A program made the position numbers and the translations under genes. Positions 1 through 33,414 of a stretch of DNA of 37,170 bases are shown in pieces. The DNA is from a virus (lineage: Duplodnaviria > Heunggongvirae > Uroviricota > Caudoviricetes). The notes beneath the pieces are model-generated. The model saw only the letters and a list, made by a program, of their open reading frames with translations. It had not been told where the DNA came from and did no database searches. Location: IMG/VR virus record IMGVR_UViG_2585427743_000015; one strand, written 5' to 3'. Each line of letters starts with the position of its first letter. Position 1 is the stretch's first letter.

Positions 1-1002
1 TTACCCTCTATTGTCAAAAGGGTTCAATTCAACAGCAGCCTCTAAATGACCTGGAGCAAAATGCGCATAACGCATAGTCATTTTTATATCGCTATGCCCC
101 AGTATTTTTTGCAACACAAGAATATTTCCGCCCCGCATCATAAAATGACTGGCAAACGTGTGACGTAGCACATGAGTTAATTGCCCATCAGGAAGCTCGA
201 TCTTCGCTCTCTTAATTGCAGCGTCAAAAGCCTCATAACATGGTGAAAATAGCGCTCCTCGTTTTTTAGGAAGCATAGCCTGCAATTGAGGTGAAATCGG
301 TACAGTGCGGTTCTTCTTTCCTTTAGTTTTAACAAATGTGATTCGACCGGGCAGTACTTGAGATTGCTTTAATCCTTCTGCTTCACTCCACCGAGCACCA
401 GTCGCAAGCCCAATACGGACAACAACCCCCAAATCTTTATTCCGTGACTCATCACACGCAATCAGAAGGCGTTCAATCTCATCTACATACAGAAACGCCA
501 GTTCCTTTTCTTCCTCACGAAACTTGCGAATACCAGTCAGGGGGTTTTCACCAGACCACTCCCCAAGGCGCTTCAGTTCGGCAAAAACAGCATGTAGATA
601 TGACTGCTCGCGATTAACGGTTGCTTCACTAAGTTTTTTCTTCCCCTTGGGATTCCATTCTCCTGATAGCCTTCTTTCCCGATAAGTAGCAAACATATTT
701 TTGTCAAACTGCGAAGCAAATGGATCTCCCAGCCTGGAACAAATCGCCTCAAGTTTGACTTTGCGCTCTGCACCAGAGGACAAGGTTTTACCGTACATCT
801 CAAACCAACGAGCAATCAACTCAGAAAGACGAGGACCAGAACCATCTTGAAACTCGTCTCCAACTCTACTATTCATTAAACGGCGCTCATAAGAGAGCGC
901 CTCACTTTTTGTCGCAAACTGTTTACGAATGCGTTTTCCCGATGCCCCGTAGGGATAACATTCGCAAAGCCATTTACCTGATGGAATCTTACGAACCGAC
1001 AT
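1..1002 (-). CDS. int: Phage tyrosine integrase (P2/186 family)
   Basis: 333-aa ORF. N-terminus 'RKIPSGKWLCECYPYGASGKRIRKQF' resembles P2-family integrases; C-terminal catalytic region 'LRHTFASHF...GHSDIKMTMRYAH' (R, H-x-x-R, Y). Stop codon is at window positions 1-3. Confidence 0.9.
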   Translation of the reverse strand: MSVRKIPSGKWLCECYPYGASGKRIRKQFATKSEALSYERRLMNSRVGDEFQDGSGPRLSELIARWFEMYGKTLSSGAERKVKLEAICSRLGDPFASQFDKNMFATYRERRLSGEWNPKGKKKLSEATVNREQSYLHAVFAELKRLGEWSGENPLTGIRKFREEEKELAFLYVDEIERLLIACDESRNKDLGVVVRIGLATGARWSEAEGLKQSQVLPGRITFVKTKGKKNRTVPISPQLQAMLPKKRGALFSPCYEAFDAAIKRAKIELPDGQLTHVLRHTFASHFMMRGGNILVLQKILGHSDIKMTMRYAHFAPGHLEAAVELNPFDNRG

Positions 1003-2978: not shown

Positions 2979-3329
2979 ATGAAAAAAAACGCTAATAATC
3001 CATACTCCAAATTTCGTAATGGCGTAGAACGCCATGTACACCACGTCGCTACCAGTGCATCACGTAGTAACAGTCGCTATAACCTGAACGAGACGCACGC
3101 AACACCGGATGGCCACGCTGTAAAACAAATCGGCGAGCATGCCTGGCTGATTGAGAAAGCTGGAATCGTGGTCCACAAATGCCCACGCAATCCGTTTACC
3201 GGAAACCGCATTTTTGCTCTAAGCAGTGGCGACAATCAGTTCGGGCAGGATTTCACATTATACGAAGCACTTCGCACGGTTGATCGTCTGCTTCGCGGGC
3301 AAAGTTTTATTAAACAGGCTGATTTATAA
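2979..3329 (+). CDS. Hypothetical early protein
   Basis: 116-aa ORF in early operon; no recognisable motif. Confidence 0.5.
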   Translation: MKKNANNPYSKFRNGVERHVHHVATSASRSNSRYNLNETHATPDGHAVKQIGEHAWLIEKAGIVVHKCPRNPFTGNRIFALSSGDNQFGQDFTLYEALRTVDRLLRGQSFIKQADL

Positions 3330-5117: not shown

Positions 5118-5321
5118 ATGAACAAAAAGACCTGGTTTCGCGCATACATGTGGGCGCTGGTATGCGTCCTCGTCTCTCTCATTCTGTATGCAGGACTACT
5201 CCCCCGAATGATTTCATCAGACAGCTCCTTCCTGGTATTGCTGGGAATTTTCATTGCCATGCTGTACCCGGCAGGCGTTGTTCGCCTTTTCAGTAAGTAC
5301 ATCAAGGAAATCAAACAATGA
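5118..5321 (+). CDS. Small membrane protein (two predicted TM helices)
   Basis: 67-aa ORF with two hydrophobic segments; immediately upstream of the SPFH lipoprotein gene with overlapping stop/start. Confidence 0.5.
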   Translation: MNKKTWFRAYMWALVCVLVSLILYAGLLPRMISSDSSFLVLLGIFIAMLYPAGVVRLFSKYIKEIKQ

Positions 5322-6148
5322 AGAAATTCAGACTCTTTCAGATTCTCCCGCTTTTTGCCGCCATCCTGCTGGTTGGTTGCGATCGCGTTGAGCCAGGTAA
5401 TGTGGGCATCAAAGTCAACAAACTGGGCGACGACAAAGGCGTCGGTGAAGTGGTTGGCGTTGGCCGCTACTGGACAGGCTGGAATACAGAGGTTTACATC
5501 TTCCCGACCTTCAAACAAATGAAGAGTTACGATGAGCCGTTCAACTTCCAGATGAGTGACGGCACAACCATCGGCTATCACATCGGCGTGGCCTACAAAG
5601 TTGATCCATCCAAAGTTACCACGGTGTTTCAGACCTACCGCAAAGGCGTGGACGACATTACCGACACTGACCTGCGCCAGAAGATCGCCGATGCACTCAA
5701 CCGACTGGCCAGCAAAATGACCACCGATAAGTTTATCGACGGTGGTAAGTCTGAACTGCTGGATTCAGCACTTAAAGATATTCAGGAAGAGATGACCCCC
5801 ATCGGTATTCAGGTCATGAGCCTCTCTTATGTCGGTAAACCGGAATATCCGCCAACCGTTATCGACAGCATTAACGCCAAAGTCACGGCAAACCAGAAAA
5901 CCCTGCAACGCGAACAGGAAGTCAAGCAGCGCGAAGCAGAAGCCAACATGTTGCGCGCAGAAGCTGCCGGACAGGCCGATGCCATTCGCACAAAAGCCCA
6001 GGCTGAAGCCGACGCCATTCGTTTACGCGGCGAAGCTCTGCGCCAGAATCCCGGCGTTATGGAGCTGGAAGCAATCAACAAATGGAACGGCACGCTGCCG
6101 CAATACATGACCAGTAACACCGCTGTTCCGTTCGTTCCCGTGAAGTAA
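5318..6148 (+). CDS. SPFH/Band-7 (prohibitin-like) domain lipoprotein
   Basis: 276-aa ORF; lipoprotein signal with lipobox 'LLVGC'; central domain and Ala/Glu/Arg/Gln-rich coiled coil ('QREQEVKQREAEANMLRAEAAGQADAIRTKAQAEADAIRLRGEA') typical of SPFH proteins. Confidence 0.7.
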   Translation: MKKFRLFQILPLFAAILLVGCDRVEPGNVGIKVNKLGDDKGVGEVVGVGRYWTGWNTEVYIFPTFKQMKSYDEPFNFQMSDGTTIGYHIGVAYKVDPSKVTTVFQTYRKGVDDITDTDLRQKIADALNRLASKMTTDKFIDGGKSELLDSALKDIQEEMTPIGIQVMSLSYVGKPEYPPTVIDSINAKVTANQKTLQREQEVKQREAEANMLRAEAAGQADAIRTKAQAEADAIRLRGEALRQNPGVMELEAINKWNGTLPQYMTSNTAVPFVPVK

Positions 6149-6315
6149 TGACACCCGGCCAGTGCAAACCGCTGGCCGGAGCAGTATCAGGATTTTTTAG
6201 TATGCCGTTCTCACAAAAAAACCGCTTGCCATGCCGCAATCAGTCAGGTTACATTTTCGCTGCACCTCATAAAACGGGTGCCGGGTTTCGCAGCCTGCTG
6301 ACAACCAAAGCGCAC

Positions 6316-6337
6316 AACCGCGCCAGCGGTTTTTTTG
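6316..6337 (+). terminator. Rho-independent terminator
   Basis: Hairpin AACCGC-gcca-GCGGTT followed by a run of T's. Confidence 0.5.
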
Positions 6338-6378
6338 TGCGTACTGTATTGCCACGTTTTTTTCGCGTCAGAATTATG

Positions 6379-6452
6379 GCGGGGCGTACGGGGCCGACTT
6401 CGGTCGGGCCGGGTTCTTTGGTTGCCGGTACTGCGAACCCCGTACGTCTCGC
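6379..6452 (+). other. GC-rich structured element (possible small RNA, RNA regulatory element or DNA structure)
   Basis: Outer 9-bp stem CGTACGGGG (6385-6393) / CCCCGTACG (6438-6446) enclosing hairpin CCGAC-TTCG-GTCGG and a CCGG/CCGG stem; lies in a ~370-bp noncoding gap. Confidence 0.3.
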
Positions 6453-6515
6453 CACCCACAGTTTCGCAGCTCTGGATGGTGAGTTTTCAAAACTTACAAC
6501 CAAAGAGGCCACACC

Positions 6516-6746
6516 ATGGCAAACCGCAAACAGCACCGCGCTATCGCGGAGCGTCGTCACATCCAGACTGAAATCAACCGCAGACTTTCCCGCGCATTCC
6601 GCGTCGCTAAAATCATGCACATCAATATGCTGCATGAGCGTAGCTGCGAACTTTCAAACCTCTACTCATCCGCTGTTTTCAGTTATCTGGCGGATGATCT
6701 GCGCGAGCTTCAGCAGCTCATCCAGCAGCAAAACAAACTCCATTAA
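6516..6746 (+). CDS. Hypothetical protein
   Basis: 76-aa basic ORF upstream of the replication gene. Confidence 0.4.
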   Translation: MANRKQHRAIAERRHIQTEINRRLSRAFRVAKIMHINMLHERSCELSNLYSSAVFSYLADDLRELQQLIQQQNKLH

Positions 6747-6818
6747 TTCCTGTTCCGGGCCTTTCCTGCACCTTGCGGCAGGAGGCCTTCGCACATCTGT
6801 AACAAGAGGATTGCCGCA

Positions 6819-7184
6819 ATGATTCTCGCCAACGACTTTCTTGAATACCTGCTCAACACAGAGCGTGATCTTGCCGTTCGCGTGCGTGAACGTTATGACA
6901 TGTACCTGAAATCCCTGCCTGTACCGCAGCTCGCTGACGGAAAGATTGTTATTGATGGTCGCTACATGATTGACAGCCACGAGGGAAATTACAGGCTTTA
7001 CCGCATTGAAGGTGGCACTCCGTCCGTTATTGGCATTTACCAGCGCCCATCCTCTGCAATCGTCGATGTGATTGCCGACAGCATCCGCATCACACATCGC
7101 TATGCCGACACAGAAGACACCGTGCTGGAAATTCAGCGGCTGGCTGCCGTTTGCCGTGACACCCTGAACGGTATGACGCAGTAA
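6819..7184 (+). CDS. Hypothetical protein upstream of gpA (gene B position)
   Basis: 121-aa ORF ending 7 bp before gpA start. Confidence 0.5.
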   Translation: MILANDFLEYLLNTERDLAVRVRERYDMYLKSLPVPQLADGKIVIDGRYMIDSHEGNYRLYRIEGGTPSVIGIYQRPSSAIVDVIADSIRITHRYADTEDTVLEIQRLAAVCRDTLNGMTQ

Positions 7185-24221: not shown

Positions 24222-27077
24222 ATGAGTACCACAACACGAAAATTTAAAACCGTTATCACCGATACGGGTGCAAAAAAATTAGCTCAGGCAGCCGCGCCAG
24301 ATGGTAAGCCTGTCCGCCTGACTCATATGGCCGTGGGCGACGGTGGCGGCACGTTGCCCACACCAGACAGTAAGCAGACCCGTCTGGTGCATGAGGTGTG
24401 GCGACATACTGTTAATCGCGTCATCCTGGACGCAACACATCAGAACCGCATTATTGCGGAGCTGGTTATTCCTCCTGAAACGGGCGGATTCTGGATCCGG
24501 GAAATTGGTGTATTTGATGAGCACGGCGATTTGATCGCGGTGGGCAATACTGCGGAAAGTTACAAGCCAGCCGTTGCCGAAGGATCCGGACGTGTACAAA
24601 CATTTCGCACCATTCTGACCGTATCCAGCACTGCCACCGTGGCGCTTACCGTGGATAACACCATGGTTATGGCCACAGTGGATTACGTGAATGACAAACT
24701 GAAAGAACATGAACAGTCACGACGTCACCCGGACGCCTCGCTGACCGCAAAAGGCTTTGTTCAACTCAGTAGCGCCACCAACAGCACGTCTGAAACACTG
24801 GCCGCAACGCCGAAAGCGGTAAAGGCCGCGTATGACCTTGCTAACGGGAAATATACCGCACAGGACGCCACCATAGCGCGAAAAGGCCTTGTCCAGCTCA
24901 GTAGTGCCACCAACAGCACGTCTGAAACGCTCGCCGCAACGCCGAAAGCGGTAAAGGCAGCATATGACCTTGCTAACGGGAAATACACTGCACAGGACGC
25001 CACCACAACGCGAAAAGGCCTTGTTCAGCTCAGTAGCGCCACCAACAGTGATTCTGAAACGCTTGCGGCAACGCCAAAGGCGGTAAAGGCAGCATATGAC
25101 CTTGCTAACGGGAAATACACTGCACAGGACGCCACCACAGCGCGAAAAGGTCTTGTCCAGCTCAGTAGCGCCACCAACAGCACGTCTGAAGCATTGGCCG
25201 CAACACCGAAAGCGGTAAAGGCCGCGTATGACCTTGCTAACGGGAAATACACTGCACAGGACGCCACCACAGCGCGAAAAGGTCTTGTCCAGCTCAGTAG
25301 CGCCACCAACAGCACGTCTGAAGCATTGGCCGCAACACCGAAAGCGGTAAAGGCCGCGTATGACCTTGCTAACGGGAAATACACTGCACAGGACGCCACC
25401 ACAGCGCGAAAAGGTCTTGTCCAGCTCAGTAGCGCCACCAACAGCACGTCTGAAGCATTGGCCGCAACACCGAAAGCGGTAAAGGCCGCGTATGACCTTG
25501 CTAACGGGAAATACACTGCACAGGACGCCACCACAGCGCGAAAAGGTCTTGTCCAGCTCAGTAGCGTCACCAACAGCGATTCTGAAACGCTTGCGGCAAC
25601 GCCAAAGGCGGTAAAGGCCGCGTATAACCTTGCTAACGGGAAATACACTGCACAGGATGCCACTACAGCGCGAAAAGGTCTTGTCCAGCTCAGTAGCGTC
25701 ACCAACAGTGATTCTGAAACGCTGGCCGCAACATCAAAAGCGGTGAAGTCTGCCTATGACAATGCTGAAAAACGCCTTCAGAAAGATCAGAACGGTGCGG
25801 ATATTCCGGGAAAGGATACCTTCACGAAAAATATCGGTGCCTGTCGTGCTTATAGCGGCGCTTTGAGCACTGAAGCCGGAAACTGGACAACCGCTCAGTT
25901 TATTGAATGGCTGGATTCCCGTGGTGCATTTAATCATCCGTACTGGATGTGCAAAGGCTCATGGTCATATGCAAATAACAAAATCATTACGGATACCGGA
26001 TGTGGTGATATCCACCTGGCTGGTTGTGTCGTCGAGGTCATGGGAACTAAATCTGCAATCACTATCCGAGTAACCACGCCGACAACATCAAGTGGTGGCG
26101 GTACAACCAGCGCACAATTCACTTACATTAATCATGGGGGCGGCTACTTCCCCGGCTGGCGTCGTGACTGGAATCGTCAGGGCGACTCAATGACCGGAAC
26201 GATTAATCAGGATGGCGGAAGCCAGAATGCCTATATGTCTACGGCCTTATGTTCAGGCACCAGAGGCGGCAAAAAATATCTCAGAAAGTTTCGTGGTGGA
26301 GAAGGAGATACTATCTGGCATGAAACAGTACAGGGCGGGGTAATTCGCTGGGCGACAGGAAACTATGACGCTCAGGAAGAATTATCACTCAGCTCCGCTT
26401 ATGGTCTCCGTTCAAGAGGTGAGATTACATCACTCAGTGCTAATGGTCTGCGCATTGCTTATGGCAATTATGGATTCTTTATCAGGAATGATGGCGGCAG
26501 CACATATTTAATGCTGACGGCCTCTGGCGATAAATTTGGGACATGGAACGGCTTAAGACCGCTGACTATCAATAACGCCAATGGCGGAGTGTCAATGGGG
26601 CATGGCCTGAGTGTTACAGGTGATATTGTCTCAAGTACCAAAGTACGTGCCGGTAGCGGGAAAAAGTTCATGGTCAGCAGCAGCAATACATCCACGAAGG
26701 AAGCCGCATTCAATTTGTGGGGAAACGCAAGTCGTCCGGTGGTGGCTGAATTAGGTGATGATGCAGGCTGGCATTTTTACAGTCAGAGAAATACAGATAA
26801 CAGCATCACTTTTGCTGTTAACGGGCAGGTATCACCATCTAACTATGGCAACTTTGATTCACGCTATGTCCGGGATATTAGACTTGGTGGCGCGTCATCC
26901 TATAAACCAGCAAATAACGGGACAACATGGACGCATCAGGCTCCATCTGGTTGCGCATATACCGGGATTATCGTTCAGGATACAGGCTCAAACTCTGCCG
27001 ATAATATTGGTGGTGTTTATTACAGACCAATTCAAAAAAATATTAATGGTACATGGTATAACGTATCGAGTGTTTGA
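24222..27077 (+). CDS. H: Tail fibre protein (P2 gpH family) with expanded internal repeats
   Basis: 951 aa; N-terminal ~180 aa closely match P2 gpH ('HEVWRH...AELVIPPE.GGFW.RE'); then ~7.7 tandem 44-aa repeats; distinct C-terminal receptor-binding region. Confidence 0.9.
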   Translation: MSTTTRKFKTVITDTGAKKLAQAAAPDGKPVRLTHMAVGDGGGTLPTPDSKQTRLVHEVWRHTVNRVILDATHQNRIIAELVIPPETGGFWIREIGVFDEHGDLIAVGNTAESYKPAVAEGSGRVQTFRTILTVSSTATVALTVDNTMVMATVDYVNDKLKEHEQSRRHPDASLTAKGFVQLSSATNSTSETLAATPKAVKAAYDLANGKYTAQDATIARKGLVQLSSATNSTSETLAATPKAVKAAYDLANGKYTAQDATTTRKGLVQLSSATNSDSETLAATPKAVKAAYDLANGKYTAQDATTARKGLVQLSSATNSTSEALAATPKAVKAAYDLANGKYTAQDATTARKGLVQLSSATNSTSEALAATPKAVKAAYDLANGKYTAQDATTARKGLVQLSSATNSTSEALAATPKAVKAAYDLANGKYTAQDATTARKGLVQLSSVTNSDSETLAATPKAVKAAYNLANGKYTAQDATTARKGLVQLSSVTNSDSETLAATSKAVKSAYDNAEKRLQKDQNGADIPGKDTFTKNIGACRAYSGALSTEAGNWTTAQFIEWLDSRGAFNHPYWMCKGSWSYANNKIITDTGCGDIHLAGCVVEVMGTKSAITIRVTTPTTSSGGGTTSAQFTYINHGGGYFPGWRRDWNRQGDSMTGTINQDGGSQNAYMSTALCSGTRGGKKYLRKFRGGEGDTIWHETVQGGVIRWATGNYDAQEELSLSSAYGLRSRGEITSLSANGLRIAYGNYGFFIRNDGGSTYLMLTASGDKFGTWNGLRPLTINNANGGVSMGHGLSVTGDIVSSTKVRAGSGKKFMVSSSNTSTKEAAFNLWGNASRPVVAELGDDAGWHFYSQRNTDNSITFAVNGQVSPSNYGNFDSRYVRDIRLGGASSYKPANNGTTWTHQAPSGCAYTGIIVQDTGSNSADNIGGVYYRPIQKNINGTWYNVSSV
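24744..25770 (+). repeat. Tandem 132-bp (44-aa) coding repeats within tail fibre gene H
   Basis: Unit 'ARKGLVQLSSATNSTSE(T/A)LAATPKAVKAAYDLANGKYTAQDATT' repeated about eight times with few substitutions. Confidence 0.85.
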
Positions 27078-27613
27078 TTATGATGCATTTAAAAAATATA
27101 AAACCGGGCAATCCAAAAACAAAAGAACAGTACCTGTTAACTAAAAACTCCGGCGTTGTCTGGTTATTCGCTGAAGATGGTAAAAACTGGTATGAGGAAC
27201 AAAAGAACTTTCAGCCAGACACCATAAAGATTGCATATGATGAAAATAATGTCATATGCGACGTGCAAACGGATGTAACTGCAATTTGCCCGGAAGGAAA
27301 AAGTGTTGTCGAGTTGCCTAATATTACAGCAAACCGACGCGCTGATATTTCAGGTAACTGGATGTTTAAAGATGGCTCAGTCATTAAACGTGTGTATACC
27401 GAAGAAGAGCAACGCTTGCAGGCTGAAAACCAGAAACAAAGGTTATTACAGCAGGCCAGAGAAAAAACGCAGTTCTGGCAGACCCAGCTTGCATTAGGGA
27501 TTATCAGTGATTCAGATAAGCAACAACTGATGCGCTGGATGCGGTACGTGCAACAAGTTGAGACCACTGATACCACTGAATTACCCGTTACGTTCCCTGA
27601 TCAACCAGAATAA
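27074..27613 (+). CDS. G: Tail fibre assembly chaperone (P2 gpG family)
   Basis: 179-aa ORF overlapping H stop. Confidence 0.8.
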   Translation: MIMMHLKNIKPGNPKTKEQYLLTKNSGVVWLFAEDGKNWYEEQKNFQPDTIKIAYDENNVICDVQTDVTAICPEGKSVVELPNITANRRADISGNWMFKDGSVIKRVYTEEEQRLQAENQKQRLLQQAREKTQFWQTQLALGIISDSDKQQLMRWMRYVQQVETTDTTELPVTFPDQPE

Positions 27614-27616
27614 ACG

Positions 27617-27650
27617 AAAGGCCCGAATATCGGGCCTTATCGTTATTTCT
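27617..27650. terminator. Bidirectional rho-independent terminator between convergent G and U
   Basis: Hairpin GGCCCG (27620-27625) / CGGGCC (27631-27636) flanked by T-rich sequence on both strands. Confidence 0.5.
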
Positions 27651-27681
27651 GTTTATCTAACTATTTGTGATTTGCGTTAAA

Positions 27682-28176
27682 TCAGAACAGTCCCTTAACA
27701 GAACTGACCGCACTGTTAAGGGATGACGCCACCTTATCTTTGAAGCCGGACAGCATATCGCTGAACGATGAGGATTGCAGGCGCTCCCGCAAATCCTCAT
27801 CACAGCGTTCAAGGGTCAGTGAAAATTCTATCTTTTTCGCCTTACCGTAGCGATCAAACTCGGAACGGGTCGTATTCGTTTCAGTCAGCACATACATGCC
27901 GTAAATCTGCCCGACACCATCAATCAGAGGCCAGGGGCGTCCTGTATATGCCTGCGTGGTCAGCAACGAAAGCGACACTTCGCCACCTGTAATTTCAGGA
28001 TAAAGCACGCCGGAAAGCACAATGCGATCATCACCTGCACCTATATACTGCCAGCTTGCTGAACGGTTAACGCGTTCATTTTTTACATGCCGCCAGCTTT
28101 TGTTTTGCTGTAACTGCTGATGCGGCAGTGTGCGCAGCTCAAAAACAAACATGCCGTAGATCATCATCATGGCCAT
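27682..28176 (-). CDS. U: Tail protein (P2 gpU family)
   Basis: 164-aa ORF immediately downstream of T on the minus strand. Confidence 0.8.
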   Translation of the reverse strand: MAMMMIYGMFVFELRTLPHQQLQQNKSWRHVKNERVNRSASWQYIGAGDDRIVLSGVLYPEITGGEVSLSLLTTQAYTGRPWPLIDGVGQIYGMYVLTETNTTRSEFDRYGKAKKIEFSLTLERCDEDLRERLQSSSFSDMLSGFKDKVASSLNSAVSSVKGLF

Positions 28177-28182
28177 GACTCC

Positions 28183-31026
28183 TCAATCTTTATCGTAAAA
28201 ACTGCCACGTCCGGCACGGGCGCGCCGTTCCATCTCTGCCCTGACCATTTCACCGACCAGTTTCGCCAGTTCGCGGGGATTCTGCGTAACAACGTTATGC
28301 AGATGAACATGAATTTCACCGCCAAACCCGGAGGCAACAGGCTCCCGGTTACGGAAAGTTGCAGGAACTGATGCCACTGGAGAGCGTATGGCCTCCGCCA
28401 CCGGGCGGGAGCTGGCCGCAACAACAGGGACCAGCGCCGGAGGCAGCGGAGCCGGGACCACGGGTGTGATATTAATTGCGGGGGCAGGCTTACTGACCTG
28501 CGCAATCTTCCGCTCCTGCCACTCCCCACGAACAGCAAGTGCGCGGGGCAGGTTCTTAAAGACAATATCGCCGGGGCCAATGCGTTTTTTCGTCTCATCA
28601 ACCAGCTTACCTGTGTTATCAGCAATTTTGCTGAGTCTGCGTAGCGTCCCGGTATTGCTGTCTGTGAGCGGTTTGTTGTCTTTGGGTTTATCGCCTCCGG
28701 TGCCATTGCCATTTTCCGCAGACTTCGGCGGATTGATTTTCGCAATGTCTCCCTGAAACAGAGCGACCTTGTCCTGAAGAATGGCCGCACGCTGTGCGTC
28801 TTCGATTTTCTTTCTCGCCCTTTCCGCTTCATCCGGAAGCACACCGAGTTTTTCAAGTATCCACGCCAGCGTATCCAGCAACATTTTTGCAGGCGTCAGA
28901 ACAAGTTGTAACGCACCGCCAAGAACGTTACCGAATATCTCGCCAGCACTGGTACATTTATCCAGCGTTTCCTTGCTGGACTCCATCGGTGACAGCAGTG
29001 ATTTAAACCAGTTAAACACCTGGCTGATCCCGCTTCCGATTGCGTCAAAAACAGGACCAAACCGTTCAAAGGTTTCGCGCAACGGGGTCAGCCTTTCCAT
29101 AATCCCGCTGAACACCCCGGCAAAAAATGCCCTGATGGGATCCCAGTATTTCCAGATAAGAACGGCAGCTCCGGCAAGCGCAGCCACGATAAGACCAACC
29201 GGACTGAACAACGCCCCGATAGCGCCTCCCAGTAAAGAAACGGAACCCGTCACCATTCCCCATAGTGCTGGCAGGACCCTGACAGCATTCATTGATCCGG
29301 TCAGGAGAGAAAAACCAAGACGCAGTTTTGCCAGCGGGCCAGCAAGCACACCAATAGCCAGCGACAACGAGCCAACCGTTGCAGTCATTGCCAGCAACGC
29401 ACCGCCTGCTATCAGTAGCTGGCGCGTCAGTGCCGGATGGGCCTGCGCCAGCGCCGTCACCCTTGATACCACCCGCGTGAGCCACTGCGTGACAGAACGC
29501 AGCGGACCGTCAATCAGATCTGCAATGCGGATGCGCAACCCTTCCCATGCACTGCCGAGTGATTTCAGATCGCCGTCAAGGTTGTTGGCCATAACCTTTG
29601 CTGTGCGTTCAGCCTCACCGCGCGCGCCTTCAAGTTCTTTTCTCAGTTTGGGTAAGGAACCGTCACCCGCTGCATCAACGAGCGCCATAAACGATGTGAA
29701 AGCCTCTTCTCCGGCAATGTCCTTAAAGAACGATACCCGGTCAACTTCCCCGTATTTGCGGGTGACTTTATAAAGGTCGGCCAGCACATCCTCCATCGGG
29801 CGCATTTTGCCCCCGGCATCCGAGACGGACACGCCCAGCTCTTTCAGCGCCTCTGCTGCTGCCTTTGGCGGTGATGCCAGACGAGCCAGGCTGGCACGCA
29901 TTGCCGTCCCGGCATCACTCCCTCTGATACCCATATTCGCCAGCACGCCCGCCATCGCTGCGGCCTGCTCCAGCGATATTCCCAGCTTACCCGCCACCGG
30001 ACCTGCATATTTCATGGTTTCGCCCAGTGCGCGAAGGTCAGTGTTGGTACGGGTAAACGCTGCGGTGAGCGTGTCGCCAACCCGGTCCATCTGGTCAGCA
30101 GAAAGGCCGAACTGCGTCAGGATATTTGAGCCAATATCCGCCGTCTCGCCGAGATCCATGCCGCCAGCCGTTGCCATGCTCAGCACGCCCGGAAGCGCAG
30201 CCTGAATGGCCTGCGGTGTGAAGCCCGCCATTGCAAGAAATGCCTGCCCACTGGCGGCATCGCCTGCGGTGAACTGCGTTTCAGAGCCAAGTTTTAACGC
30301 CTGCTCACGCAGCGCCTTAAACTGCGGGCTGTTCTGGTCGATTCGCGTCAGAGCCTGAACGCGGGACATCTCTTTCCCGAACCCAATCGCGGGCTGCAAA
30401 AAACGCCCGGCAGCATAGCCGCCCGCCGCTGCCGCACCTGTTGCCAGTGCACCACCTGTTTTCAGTTTTCCCGCGGTTTCCTGCGCGCGCGAATACCGCT
30501 CACGCGCACGTGTTACACGCGCAAGCGCCTGCCGTTCGCGTTCAAGCTGGTTGTTGTACTGTTCGGTGCGTCTGATGGCCTGCTGGATGGTGTTATCGCT
30601 GCCTGTCAGGGAAATGCCGTGGCGTTTCAGCTCTCCGCCAAGCTCCCGCATTTTCTGAATTTCCCGTGTACGCGATTCATTCAGGCGTTCAAGCCGGGTG
30701 CTTAACTGCTGCATCAGCTTTTGTTGTTTTTCGCTGAGCACTGTACCCGTGCGTTGTAACTGATTAAGGGCGTTAAGCTGGCGTCGTGCTTTCACGATGC
30801 CAGCATCCGCTTTACTGACAGCGTCACGGGCGCGCTCAAATGAACGCGCCTGACGCTCGAGATTTTTGATCGCCCCCTGCGTTCGCTGGATGGAGTCACC
30901 AAACTGCCCCATCAGGCGGCGGGCGTTTTCGGCAGGCCGAGTCAGCCTGTCAACGGCGCTGAAAGCGACCCGGATATCAAGAGTCTTCATTGTCTGCATT
31001 CCCGCTGCGAAGTGCCGCCCGCTCAC
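28183..31026 (-). CDS. T: Tail tape measure protein (P2 gpT family)
   Basis: 947 aa, Ala/Gly-rich with long helical stretches and a hydrophobic central segment; GTG at 31026 or internal ATG at 30999. Confidence 0.9.
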   Translation of the reverse strand: MSGRHFAAGMQTMKTLDIRVAFSAVDRLTRPAENARRLMGQFGDSIQRTQGAIKNLERQARSFERARDAVSKADAGIVKARRQLNALNQLQRTGTVLSEKQQKLMQQLSTRLERLNESRTREIQKMRELGGELKRHGISLTGSDNTIQQAIRRTEQYNNQLERERQALARVTRARERYSRAQETAGKLKTGGALATGAAAAGGYAAGRFLQPAIGFGKEMSRVQALTRIDQNSPQFKALREQALKLGSETQFTAGDAASGQAFLAMAGFTPQAIQAALPGVLSMATAGGMDLGETADIGSNILTQFGLSADQMDRVGDTLTAAFTRTNTDLRALGETMKYAGPVAGKLGISLEQAAAMAGVLANMGIRGSDAGTAMRASLARLASPPKAAAEALKELGVSVSDAGGKMRPMEDVLADLYKVTRKYGEVDRVSFFKDIAGEEAFTSFMALVDAAGDGSLPKLRKELEGARGEAERTAKVMANNLDGDLKSLGSAWEGLRIRIADLIDGPLRSVTQWLTRVVSRVTALAQAHPALTRQLLIAGGALLAMTATVGSLSLAIGVLAGPLAKLRLGFSLLTGSMNAVRVLPALWGMVTGSVSLLGGAIGALFSPVGLIVAALAGAAVLIWKYWDPIRAFFAGVFSGIMERLTPLRETFERFGPVFDAIGSGISQVFNWFKSLLSPMESSKETLDKCTSAGEIFGNVLGGALQLVLTPAKMLLDTLAWILEKLGVLPDEAERARKKIEDAQRAAILQDKVALFQGDIAKINPPKSAENGNGTGGDKPKDNKPLTDSNTGTLRRLSKIADNTGKLVDETKKRIGPGDIVFKNLPRALAVRGEWQERKIAQVSKPAPAINITPVVPAPLPPALVPVVAASSRPVAEAIRSPVASVPATFRNREPVASGFGGEIHVHLHNVVTQNPRELAKLVGEMVRAEMERRARAGRGSFYDKD

Positions 31027-31506
31027 GCCAGCTAACCACTTCGCCGGGCGTCATCATGAAGATTTCGGCGGGCGACCAGTTAAAAATAACGGCAATATCT
31101 GCCACAAAGTCTTCTATGTGCTCAAAGCACACAACCGTGATCAGGCTTCCGTCGCCTGTTCGTTCTTCCCGCCAGAGTCCGCACCGCTCAAAAAATTTAC
31201 GGCAACCACACATAACTGAATAAAGTCACGGGATGCCATTTTTTTGATCGTCACTTCATCCAGTCGCGGTGATGTCACGCGTGACAGCAGCGTAAACATG
31301 GATTCCGCTTTCAGATTCAGCACATCAGACAGCGACAAATCTCGCAGAGATCCAGCCTGCTCAATAGCCCCGGTGATCTCCACATACGTGATTTTTTCGC
31401 CGCCTCGCTCAATTGGTTGGGTAAGTTTTACGCCACGCTCACTGGTTTCTTTCACAGTGTCAGCAACTACCGTGTTTTCGGTATCGATGTTTTTCGTCTC
31501 TTTCAT
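30977..31506 (-). CDS. E+E' fusion chaperone made by programmed -1 ribosomal frameshift
   Basis: Slippery heptamer T_TTT_TTG on the minus strand (plus coords 31189-31195); the -1 frame continues as 'ERCGLWREERTGDG...' to a stop at 30977, overlapping the T start. Confidence 0.6.
31141..31506 (-). CDS. E: Tail assembly chaperone (P2 gpE family)
   Basis: 121-aa ORF between tail tube and tape measure; contains the slippery site near its 3' end. Confidence 0.8.
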   Translation of the reverse strand: MKETKNIDTENTVVADTVKETSERGVKLTQPIERGGEKITYVEITGAIEQAGSLRDLSLSDVLNLKAESMFTLLSRVTSPRLDEVTIKKMASRDFIQLCVVAVNFLSGADSGGKNEQATEA

Positions 31507-31560
31507 CAGGAAACTCCTTTCAGTCAGAGGCGACGCACTGCGCCGCCTGCATATTACTTA

Positions 31561-32073
31561 TCAGCCAAGCCCAAGCGCGGAACGGATACGGTCAGGCACA
31601 ATGTCCTTGCCGTCCTTCCGGTAGATGAAGTTCAGCAGGTCAATCTCCCACAACGGGCGATCGTTAACACTCAGCTTGTAGTAGGTGTTTTTAATGGCGT
31701 AAGTGTGTGATGTGGCTTCGCCCTGTTTGGCTTCCCCCATATCAATTTCCGTCACACGTCCGCGCATTTCGACTTCATACAGGTCGCTTTCTGCATCGGT
31801 GTAGTATTCACCCGCAAAACGCAGCAGCGTGCCGTCAATCGTGCCGCCATACTTAAGGAACAGCTCACGAACTGCGCCCCCCATGACAAAGCTCGCATCA
31901 AGCGCGGAGTCGTCCAGACCGAGATCAATACTTACCGCACCCATCATGCCGCCACCCCGGTAGCTGTCGGTTTTGCGCGTCAGCTTAGGCAGAGTGACGG
32001 ACGTCACCTTACCCACTTCGTTTTCACCATCCACAAACAGCGTAAAAAAGCGAAGATGTTTTGGCACAGCCAT
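31561..32073 (-). CDS. FII: Tail tube protein (P2 gpFII family)
   Basis: 170-aa ORF downstream of sheath, size as P2 FII. Confidence 0.85.
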   Translation of the reverse strand: MAVPKHLRFFTLFVDGENEVGKVTSVTLPKLTRKTDSYRGGGMMGAVSIDLGLDDSALDASFVMGGAVRELFLKYGGTIDGTLLRFAGEYYTDAESDLYEVEMRGRVTEIDMGEAKQGEATSHTYAIKNTYYKLSVNDRPLWEIDLLNFIYRKDGKDIVPDRIRSALGLG

Positions 32074-33257
32074 CAGGCACCTCCCAGCACCGCAAATGCA
32101 GGTTCAAAGTATTCATCAGTAAACGTCTGGTAAAGCTCCATGTCTTCCAGTGGCGGAACAGGCGTATATTTGTAGCGAATACGCACACGCCCCTGACGTA
32201 AATCCGTGGTGCTGTTATCCACCACGTCATACCAGCACTCCGCGCCAATCAGTTTCCCGGCAGTAACCAGTGAATCCAGTTTTGCCCTGATGGCACTGAT
32301 AACATCCTTCACGTTCGCAGGCGTCAGTGGACTGTCGATGGTTTCAAACTGCGCTTCTGCAATTGAATCAGCCAGCACCTGTGCGGTTCGGGTATACACC
32401 TCAAAGATGTAGGCGTTCGTTTCCGGTGTGCGGTTGCCCCAGAAGCGGAACCCGTTGCGACGAATAATGGTCGTGATTTCTTTGTTGTTGAGGCTGTTGG
32501 CATCACTGTCTTCGGCCTGCAACGACCAGAACACATGCCTGGACATTCCCAGCACATTTTTAACAGGAACGTTGGACAGCGATTTGTGCCAGCCCTGCTC
32601 ATGGTCAATGTACGCACGAAGGCCGCACGCATAGGCAGGCGCGGGGAACGTTTCGTTTTTGCCACTTTTCGGGTTGTAGGCGATGAAGTCCGGCCATAAG
32701 AGCATCACCTCACGTTCGTTGAATTTCTGGCGGTAGGTAATCGCCTCAGCCATCGTGTTACAGCCGTGACATGAGGCATACACAAACGCGCGCAGTTTAC
32801 CCGCAATCACGCACAGGGATTTTGTTACCGCCTCCGTGTCCAGCTCCGGCGCGGCCAGAATACGCGGACGGTATCCGATGCTTTCATCCTGCTCTGCAAC
32901 AAGCAGCGCATACATCCCCGTATAGCTGCCGTCAGATTCAGAACCACCGATAACCAGTTGATCCTGCGTTTTTCCGTCTTCTTCTTTGTGTTCAGCCACG
33001 CGAACGACGATCACCTTTGTGCTCACCTGGTCTGCGATGGCCTTAAGCGCACGATAAAGCGTCCCCGTTGTCCCGCATTTTCCCAGCACGTCATTGACGC
33101 GGGTCAGCAGTGTGGGCTTGTTCAGCGGGAACAGCTTCGCGTCCGCATCATCCGCCGTTGCCACGATACCGATAACGCTGGAATCAACATCGTTAATCGC
33201 TGTTACCAGGTCGGTATTTTCCGTAACACGGGCACCATGAAAACGAGTTTCACTCAT
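32073..33257 (-). CDS. FI: Tail sheath protein (P2 gpFI family)
   Basis: 394-aa ORF, size and position as P2 FI. Confidence 0.9.
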   Translation of the reverse strand: MSETRFHGARVTENTDLVTAINDVDSSVIGIVATADDADAKLFPLNKPTLLTRVNDVLGKCGTTGTLYRALKAIADQVSTKVIVVRVAEHKEEDGKTQDQLVIGGSESDGSYTGMYALLVAEQDESIGYRPRILAAPELDTEAVTKSLCVIAGKLRAFVYASCHGCNTMAEAITYRQKFNEREVMLLWPDFIAYNPKSGKNETFPAPAYACGLRAYIDHEQGWHKSLSNVPVKNVLGMSRHVFWSLQAEDSDANSLNNKEITTIIRRNGFRFWGNRTPETNAYIFEVYTRTAQVLADSIAEAQFETIDSPLTPANVKDVISAIRAKLDSLVTAGKLIGAECWYDVVDNSTTDLRQGRVRIRYKYTPVPPLEDMELYQTFTDEYFEPAFAVLGGA

Positions 33258-33414
33258 AGCTTCAGCCCCTTGTATCCGTTAAATGATTCGGCAACAATCA
33301 TCACCCACCACGCGCGTAATCTCCCCCCTGCGCCGTTCTCCCGCCACGGCGACAACAAAAAGCAGTAACCCCCTCCGCACGCACATGCGACCATGCCGCA
33401 CAGGGAGGGAGCAG

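Follow-up and report, generated by a model that had tools for sequence, protein, structure and literature searches.

Why does a phage with a recognizable P2-type tail module carry most of it in reverse? In the 37,170-nt window (the whole stretch of DNA that was analysed, IMG/VR virus record IMGVR_UViG_2585427743_000015, Caudoviricetes), open reading frames and Pfam matches place FI, FII, E/E′, T and U on the minus strand at 27682–33257, inverted with respect to P2, as an earlier note on this sequence had claimed. The direction of the P2 operon given in that note is right: in NC_001895, FI-FII-E-T-U-D runs in the same direction as V-W-J-I-H-G, with U and D overlapping. Two explanations had been left standing, a lineage-specific rearrangement and an assembly artefact. 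The genes concerned are the following.

27074–27613, plus strand: G, tail-fibre assembly protein (ORF table; Pfam Caudo_TAP, E = 2.5e-33)
27682–28176, minus strand: U, tail protein (Pfam Phage_P2_GpU, E = 5.6e-39; 46% identity to P2 U)
28183–31026, minus strand: T, tape measure, longest ORF (Pfam PhageMin_Tail, E = 1.2e-57; P88 annotation)
30977–31132, minus strand: GpE′ segment of E′, the −1 frameshift extension of E (Pfam Phage_P2_GpE, E = 7.3e-13)
31141–31506, minus strand: E (ORF layout; 32% identity to P2 E)
31195–31189, minus strand: E/E′ slippery site T6G (TTTTTTG), read from the sequence
31561–32073, minus strand: FII, tail tube (Pfam Phage_tube, E = 7.5e-47)
32073–33257, minus strand: FI, tail sheath (Pfam Phage_sheath_1, Gp18_domIII_N and Phage_sheath_1C)
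33415–34524, plus strand: D, baseplate hub, “late control D” (Pfam Phage_GPD; 49% identity to P2 D)
34567–34827, plus strand: ogr/delta-type zinc-finger late activator (Pfam Ogr_Delta, E = 5.1e-14; cysteine motif CX2C-X24-CX4C)

This is the complete tail module of a member of the Peduoviridae (FI, FII, E/E′ with a −1 frameshift, T, U, D and an Ogr/Delta activator), all of its genes having Pfam matches except E itself. Together E and E′ span 30977–31506 on the minus strand, the E′ frame being −1 relative to E, in comparison with the P2 E+E′ annotation. For T, the annotated P88 start corresponds to the ATG at 30990. D starts at the ATG at 33415, which has a Shine–Dalgarno sequence (GGGAGGG) and with which the start codons of all relatives align; the in-frame upstream ATG at 33283 offered by the ORF table was rejected. 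G closes the plus-strand V-W-J-I-H-G series. The window shares with the P2 pF operon (FI-FII-E-E′-T-U-D) its genes, their internal order from FI to U, the E/E′ −1 frameshift, an Ogr-type dyad ∼82–88 bp upstream of the FI ATG, and an ogr gene directly 3′ of D. The FETUD organization of the prototype is nevertheless absent. The P2 operon runs collinearly with V-G, and its D overlaps U and is transcribed from pF; here the minus strand carries FI-U, and D, encoded on the plus strand, has a separate 5′ region, diverging from FI across exactly the 157 bp (33258–33414) given in the earlier note.

The window is a P88-like (Xuanwuvirus, Peduoviridae) prophage, and its inverted order is the ordinary state of a whole clade, not a peculiarity of this sequence. 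P88 itself (NC_026014 / KP063541) has the same order, U-T-E′-E-FII-FI on the minus strand and D-ogr on the plus strand, and is 97% identical. P88, PhiR44_2, Citrobacter phiSM, P884B11, 520873 and 500465-2 share 95–97% nucleotide identity with the window over 27671–35000, and their FI-D gap has almost the same sequence, dyad included. This group differs in its immunity and early region; moreover, G and U of P88 are separated by a DNA invertase and an invertible tail-fibre cassette, while the window lacks both and G adjoins U. The same inverted block is found in Salmonella SEN4/SEN5 (Senquatrovirus) and in Klebsiella Reginaelenavirus-type phages, which have other hosts, other tail fibres and a D only 63–70% identical to that of the window; they retain a divergent FI/D gap of equal length (the coding-sequence gap in the annotated SEN5 record is also 157 bp), with the dyad and −10 elements conserved. 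Inverted FI-U, divergent FI/D and convergent G/U thus characterize the whole P88/SEN4-type clade, comprising Xuanwuvirus, Senquatrovirus, Reginaelenavirus and uncultured relatives, and the synteny comparison proposed in the earlier note comes down on the side of a lineage-specific rearrangement.

To delimit the clade, we took a census of orientation in 296 fetched loci, split at 60% identity to the window's D. At or above this threshold, 125 loci were inverted (125/125 of those that could be classified, in line with the annotations of P88 and SEN5), one was disrupted by an IS but had the same orientation, four were truncated, and none was of P2 type. Below it, 163 were collinear as in P2, three were undetermined and none was inverted. 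The collinear loci include P2-like and SopEPhi-like contigs, Kapieceevirus, phiCTX, Mannheimia PHL101 and Shewanella M16-3. An alignment-based scan of viral contigs had returned members of the inverted clade only, and the collinear group was therefore sampled with separate P2 and SopEPhi queries. Fels-2/SopEPhi, considered as possible sharers of the inverted order, were rejected, SopEPhi being collinear. Because the group below 60% was drawn chiefly from phages closely related to P2 and SopEPhi, with six genera checked individually, the inversion may have arisen independently elsewhere in the Peduoviridae.

These data leave an assembly artefact, in which a 5.6-kb block was misoriented in the assembly of this one genome, with practically no probability. 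Nothing speaks for it beyond the difference from P2, and against it the FI-D junction (901 bp) is contiguous at 95–100% identity in 1358 of 5426 complete E. coli genomes, about a quarter of them. The exact G-U junction at the other end of the block is present in 28 complete E. coli genomes, and is 100% identical across several independent ones. The same order also recurs in 11 phage records, in 80 IMG/VR contigs and in genome contigs of numerous genera of Enterobacterales, and no repeats flank the block that might have misled an assembler.

At that other end, the block converges on G, as the earlier note had it, across a spacer (27614–27681) with a hairpin that is terminator-like on both strands.

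27618–27638, both strands: hairpin in the convergent G/U spacer, likely a bidirectional intrinsic terminator (terminator scan and folding)

Its stem has 9 bp, including 6 G–C pairs, and the fold reaches −26.4 kcal/mol; its z-score is −7.65 for the plus strand, and the minus strand gives −5.54. The equivalent junction of P88, between invertase and U, has a different hairpin. That invertase, adjoining the 3′ end of U, brings up a second explanation, that the block is phase-variable, a Gin/Cin/Hin-type DNA invertase flipping it so that populations contain both orientations; a fragment of an invertase also lies just upstream of FI in SopEPhi, and this is a frequent location of invertible tail-fibre segments. 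Yet the hallmarks of such Gin/Cin/Hin/Pin systems are missing from the window: no invertase ORF lies between G and U, where that of P88 is found, and the block has no flanking inverted repeats, the best pair that spans it (19 nt, 84% complementarity) lying inside the U and D coding sequences and being one of 79 chance-level pairs. The same search, read for a trace of the recombination mechanism, gave chance-level pairs only. With none of the 125 clade members in the other orientation, and a flipped state that would cost D its promoter and break the terminator arrangement, we regard a switching segment as scarcely credible.

We favor instead one old inversion, since fixed in the clade, as the event to which these comparisons point. 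The P2 order is the ancestral one: collinear operons occur in phiCTX, Mannheimia PHL101, Shewanella M16-3, SopEPhi and Kapieceevirus alike. Phage genomes being mosaic, the FI-U block might alternatively have come from an unrelated contractile-tail phage and been inserted backwards, and T is indeed poorly conserved (33% identity to P2; 25–58% within the clade). However, FI, FII and U (46, 42 and 46% identical to P2) resemble the unmoved D (49%) and J (54%) in their divergence, and FI identity tracks D identity within the clade. The promoter upstream of FI is an orthologue of pF at an equal distance from the ATG, and the E/E′ frameshift architecture is kept. Such a replacement is therefore very improbable; as judged from these identities, the block appears not to be a foreign module, and to have diverged from P2 to the same degree as D.

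With D on the other strand, the earlier note reasoned, it would need a promoter of its own, and a search for divergent late promoters in the gap at 33258–33414 yielded a conserved Ogr-type dyad with a predicted −10 hexamer on each side, that of D at the canonical distance.

33335–33356 (centre 33345.5), no strand assigned: Ogr-type activator dyad GTTCT-N12-ACAAC, predicted to be common to the divergent FI and D promoters
33297–33302, minus strand: GATGAT, predicted −10 element of the promoter of FI (orthologous to pF); distance to the dyad centre 43.5 bp, transcription predicted to begin at ∼33290
33389–33394, plus strand: GACCAT, predicted −10 element of the promoter of D; distance to the dyad centre 43.5 bp, transcription predicted to begin at ∼33401

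The late-promoter activator consensus is TGT-N12-ACA, the four P2 late promoters are Ogr-dependent, and in phage Smp131 one site serves two divergent promoters (PMC3931495). The window encodes an Ogr_Delta protein and has three exact copies of GTTCT-N12-ACAAC, as compared to 0.07 expected; two of these occupy the two divergent late-gene gaps, the copy in the window's own P/O gap being at 15874–15895. The third, inside T (28905–28926, minus strand), was dropped as a candidate internal promoter, since none of 70 diverged relatives has it; a bare match to the motif can therefore arise without function. The gap dyad, in contrast to this unconserved copy, aligns with the pF dyad of P2, SopEPhi and Kapieceevirus, the distance to the FI ATG being equal, and its right half, ACAAC(AAAA), is invariant in 38 diverged relatives (<90% mutual identity), the spacer being variable. 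Its left half-site is TCT in the window versus TGT in the consensus, and many relatives have GTTGT; a strict search of the window for TGT-N12-ACA gave one irrelevant match, as compared to nine expected. The site of this clade is better written GkTsT-N12-ACAAC.

The geometry around the dyad is conserved and symmetric. On the FI side, a NANNAT hexamer lies exactly 43.5 bp from the dyad centre in 36 of the 38 relatives and at 44.5 bp in the other two, within a conserved block of alignment columns. On the D side, it lies at exactly 43.5 bp in 29 and at 44.5 bp in three, most of the remaining six having GATCCT; at other offsets NANNAT hexamers are essentially absent. Position 33345.5 is accordingly equidistant from GATGAT (minus) and GACCAT (plus), as in a bidirectional promoter with a shared activator, and each half has the features of an Ogr/Delta late promoter: a dyad centred near −55 (left half TCT), a weak −10 and no −35. 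No sigma-70 −35/−10 promoter was found in the FI-D gap. P2 pP/pO offers the closest parallel, since there too a single dyad lies midway between divergent late genes, the −10 elements are 43.5 bp to each side and a −35 is missing, and a single annotated activator site (3057–3087) lies between the mapped starts at 3016 and 3127. The P2 promoters, for which alone function has been shown experimentally, serve P-Q and O-S, whereas the window gap would serve FI-U and D(-ogr). From these likenesses we infer that the FI-D gap is a two-way Ogr-dependent promoter, reading FI-U in one direction and D(-ogr) in the other, with Ogr probably binding the dyad and both transcripts expected to be made late.

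Extended −10 promoters can function without a −35 element. The inversion could thus be real and D nonetheless driven by an activator-independent extended −10 or by another regulator, instead of by the shared Ogr dyad. In keeping with this, TGn and a tract of alternating pyrimidines and purines (33376–33389) come before the D-side hexamer, the TG one base upstream being conserved, and the conservation of the block CGCGCGCGCrTGr goes beyond the needs of a simple −10. An independent promoter would not, however, need a fixed distance from the dyad, so the mirror-symmetric 43.5-bp spacing (29 of 38 relatives, or 32 allowing one base) across a variable intervening sequence counts against it, and D, as a structural hub protein, should be produced late, together with the rest of the tail proteins. 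We consider separate control of D unlikely, although less so than any of the other alternatives.

We therefore favor the shared Ogr dyad, and put at about 85% the probability that the window is a P88-like prophage with a single ancient inversion common to its clade, the FI-D gap of which is a predicted bidirectional Ogr-dependent late promoter. The proposed event would have turned the segment from just upstream of pF to the U/D boundary, splitting the P2 operon FI-FII-E/E′-T-U-D. FI to U are now read from the minus strand towards G, ending at the likely hairpin terminator, while D would have kept its place beside ogr and gained the pF activator site next to its 5′ end. The 157-bp gap would then act as a bidirectional Ogr-dependent late promoter, with two divergent transcription starts, each ∼55 bp downstream of one Ogr dyad, and weak −10 hexamers 43.5 bp to each side without a −35, an arrangement as in P2 pP/pO. 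The predicted D leader is only ∼14 nt. Transcripts from this putative promoter, pD, probably run on into ogr, because no terminator-like site was found between D and ogr. The Ogr positive-feedback transcript is ∼6.7 kb from pF to ogr in P2, and would be ∼1.4 kb for pD-D-ogr here. That the inversion created a second bidirectional late promoter with a shared activator (pF/pD), uncoupled D from the sheath/tube operon and shortened the Ogr feedback transcript from ∼6.7 to ∼1.4 kb is a more speculative proposal, which we advance tentatively and hold to be rather doubtful.

The inversion is not mentioned in the papers on P88 (PMC5285337), SEN4/5 (PMC5261728), phiSM (PMC6456863), Serratia PP4 (PMC9826266) or Burkholderia P2-like phages (PMC3091744). 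The gene order could nonetheless already be read from public records; novelty, of a modest kind, is limited to the promoter inference, and the current understanding of P2-like phages is unaltered by these findings. For annotation, the inverted order is normal for a very common prophage clade, and should be neither flagged as a misassembly nor “corrected” to P2 order. For taxonomy, it provides, in our sample, a clean rearrangement character separating the P88/SEN4-type (D at least 60% identical) from the collinear P2-, Fels-2-, phiCTX- and HP1-types. For regulation, it constitutes a natural experiment, in which the dyad of a single promoter (pF) appears to have been co-opted for a divergent second promoter by gain of a −10 in mirror position, which fits the action of P2-type activators at pP/pO. 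If true, the pF/pD rewiring would amount to a differently wired late switch, and might help explain the fixation of the inversion and the commonness of the clade in Enterobacterales.

The window is a P2-like prophage integrated in the host chromosome, its attachment site probably coinciding with, or lying close to, the tRNA-Leu gene, and is laid out as follows.

1-1002, minus strand: integrase, at the left end of the window
Late region, first part: Q and P on the minus strand, then O, N, M, L ... R, S, V, W, J, I, H and G on the plus strand
Late region, distal part: U, T, E'/E, FII and FI on the minus strand, with D and ogr last, on the plus strand
Within 36168-37170, at the right end: tRNA-Leu(taa), tRNA-Cys and tRNA-Gly genes and a pgsA-like CDP-alcohol phosphatidyltransferase gene

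Pfam recovered GpU, the tape measure, GpE, tube, sheath, GPD, Ogr_Delta and the G tail-fibre chaperone. For the -1 frameshift between E and E' the slippery sequence is TTTTTTG (31195-31189, minus strand), with E' in the -1 frame. The start codon of D is the ATG at 33415, which follows GGGAGGG and lines up with that of all relatives. Elsewhere, Rfam models detect C4 antisense RNA (87 bits) and isrK (66 bits) at 6262-6459 on the plus strand, in or beside an Ash-family ORF (6148-6822); these make up, inside a P2-like early region, a module of the P1/P7 type for antisense-RNA immunity or anti-repression. Accessory genes encode a ParM-type actin-like segregation protein (10090-11049), an SPFH/Band-7 protein (5318-6148) and a DUF3800 protein (11597-12403), and G+C is low (0.385) at 1001-2000.

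The earlier note had described the FI-U block as inverted relative to P2, through either lineage-specific rearrangement or misassembly. All its coordinates for the block and both junctions hold, including the 157-bp FI-D gap (33258-33414), and its account of the prototype was correct: P2 (NC_001895) has FI-FII-E-E'-T-U-D collinear with V-W-J-I-H-G, with D and U overlapping. The bidirectional terminator on which it had G and U converge corresponds to a 9-bp hairpin (27618-27638; -26.4 kcal/mol, z = -7.65) in the 27614-27681 spacer, terminator-like on either strand. The arrangement is genuine, and the suspicion of an assembly artefact falls because both junctions recur in independent genomes: the FI-D junction (901-bp probe) is contiguous in 1358 of 5426 complete E. 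coli genomes, and the window's own G-U junction is present in 28 of the 5426, several at 100% identity. With positions 26500-35000 as megablast query, P88, PhiR44_2, Citrobacter phiSM, P884B11, 520873, 500465-2 and others match at 95-97% from 27671 on, and the P88 RefSeq annotation likewise has the block inverted and D divergent. The exact G-U junction was not found in any record of the phage collection. Between G and U, P88 (NC_026014, 24860-27564) carries an invertible tail-fibre cassette and a DNA invertase, whereas the window (24222-27681) has neither. Similarity to Yersinia P2-like phages and to the S/U genes of Mu, P1 and P7 is seen in the 3' part of H and the whole of G.

What stands is rearrangement at the level of a lineage. 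For a census of gene order, we collected loci that encode homologues of D and assigned each to an arrangement from tblastn searches with the window proteins: 47 from species-representative genomes (including Salmonella, Serratia, Erwinia, Pantoea, Enterobacter, Klebsiella, Kosakonia, Brenneria, Symbiopectobacterium and Edwardsiella), 80 from IMG/VR retrieved with a D alignment, 160 further IMG/VR loci retrieved with the D proteins of SopEPhi and P2, and individual phage records. Where D is at least 60% identical to that of the window, the inverted order is the rule (125 loci, none P2-type; one disrupted with the same orientation, four truncated). Below 60% identity, 163 loci are P2-type, none is inverted and three were not assignable; collinear examples are P2, SopEPhi (Felsduovirus), Kapieceevirus, phiCTX (Citexvirus), Mannheimia PHL101 (Baylorvirus) and Shewanella M16-3 (Arsenicumvirus). 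Since every classifiable locus sampled below 60%, those genera included, is collinear, the P2 order is ancestral, and the inversion is a synapomorphy of a clade including Xuanwuvirus, Senquatrovirus (SEN5) and Reginaelenavirus-type phages. The inverted genes are as close to P2 (FI 46%, FII 42%, U 46% identity) as is the unmoved D (49%), and FI identity rises and falls with that of D inside the clade, which favours inversion in situ over acquisition of the block as a foreign module. An actively invertible segment was also considered and ruled out, since no inverted repeats border the block in the window and no clade member in the census has the opposite orientation.

In P2, late promoters are without a -35 element and contain a TGT-N12-ACA dyad to which Ogr binds (PMC3931495). 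In the P2 record, one activator site (3057-3087) is common to the divergent promoters pP and pO, whose mapped starts (3016 and 3127) each lie ~55 bp from its centre. In the P2 sequence, the -10 hexamers of pP (TAGCCT) and pO (GAAACT) each begin 43.5 bp from the dyad centre, and that of the F-operon promoter pF (GAAAAT) begins 44.5 bp from its own. When the FI-D gap was searched for divergent late promoters, as the earlier note had proposed, a predicted dyad of this type with mirror-placed -10 hexamers was found, GTTCT-N12-ACAAC occurring exactly three times in the window against 0.07 expected.

15874-15895: dyad copy in the P/O gap
28905-28926, minus strand: dyad copy inside T
33335-33356: dyad copy in the FI-D gap
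33302 to 33297, minus strand: predicted FI -10, GATGAT (predicted start ~33290)
33389-33394, plus strand: predicted D -10, GACCAT (predicted start ~33401)

We discount the copy in T, which is conserved in 0 of 70 diverged relatives and is probably either a chance match or confined to the P88 group. Near the P/O copy, the longest O ORF begins at 15933, but ATG 15966 is favoured as the true start of O by the P88 annotation together with the pO start predicted at ~15940. The dyad in the FI-D gap can be aligned to its pF counterparts in P2, SopEPhi and Kapieceevirus, at equal distance from the FI start codon, so that the predicted FI promoter is the pF orthologue. Among 38 gap sequences of <90% mutual identity, the right half-site ACAAC and the A-run after it are essentially invariant, the left half-site is GkTsT and the 12-bp spacer varies freely. 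On the FI side, 36 of the 38 have NANNAT at exactly 43.5 bp from the dyad centre (two more at 44.5 bp); on the D side, 29 do (three more at 44.5 bp; GATCCT in most others), with almost no matches at other offsets from 20 to 62 bp. A conserved TGn and an alternating tract, CGCGCGCGCrTG, precede the D-side hexamer, and no sigma-70 -35/-10 promoter was detected in the gap. This pyrimidine-purine tract (33376-33389; CGCACGCACATGCG in the window) is conserved beyond the need of a plain extended -10, and it may act in regulation, whether supercoiling-sensitive (Z-DNA-prone) or of another kind. Small 'hypothetical protein' CDSs annotated within the gap in P88 (33155-33286) and SEN5 (8800-8952) overlap conserved elements of the promoter and are probably not real genes.

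The inversion has one breakpoint immediately beyond the pF dyad and the other at the U/D boundary; the first 12-18 residues of D cannot be aligned with P2 D and vary inside the clade, consistent with a breakpoint at the extreme 5' end of D. Inversion brought the pF dyad beside D, where a -10 at the mirror position would suffice for a bidirectional site, as at pP/pO. From conserved sequence geometry we infer this regulation, and likewise that of ogr, which follows D after 42 bp (34525-34566). That spacer holds a -10-like TAGAAT (34531-34536); most relatives have CATAAT at the equivalent spot and then, immediately ahead of the ribosome-binding site of ogr, a conserved palindrome, GAGTTCAACTC, that the window lacks. 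These hexamers suggest that ogr probably retains its own promoter and, as no terminator was detected between D and ogr, transcripts from the predicted D promoter, pD, probably also reach it. This dual supply would parallel P2, whose record annotates a single terminator for the ogr transcript and the F operon. The inverted order is annotated in public records and usual in an abundant prophage clade, and so is already known in databases; we found no remark on it in the papers searched. The predicted pF/pD promoter, shared between FI and D, would be a modest and testable addition of a known kind.
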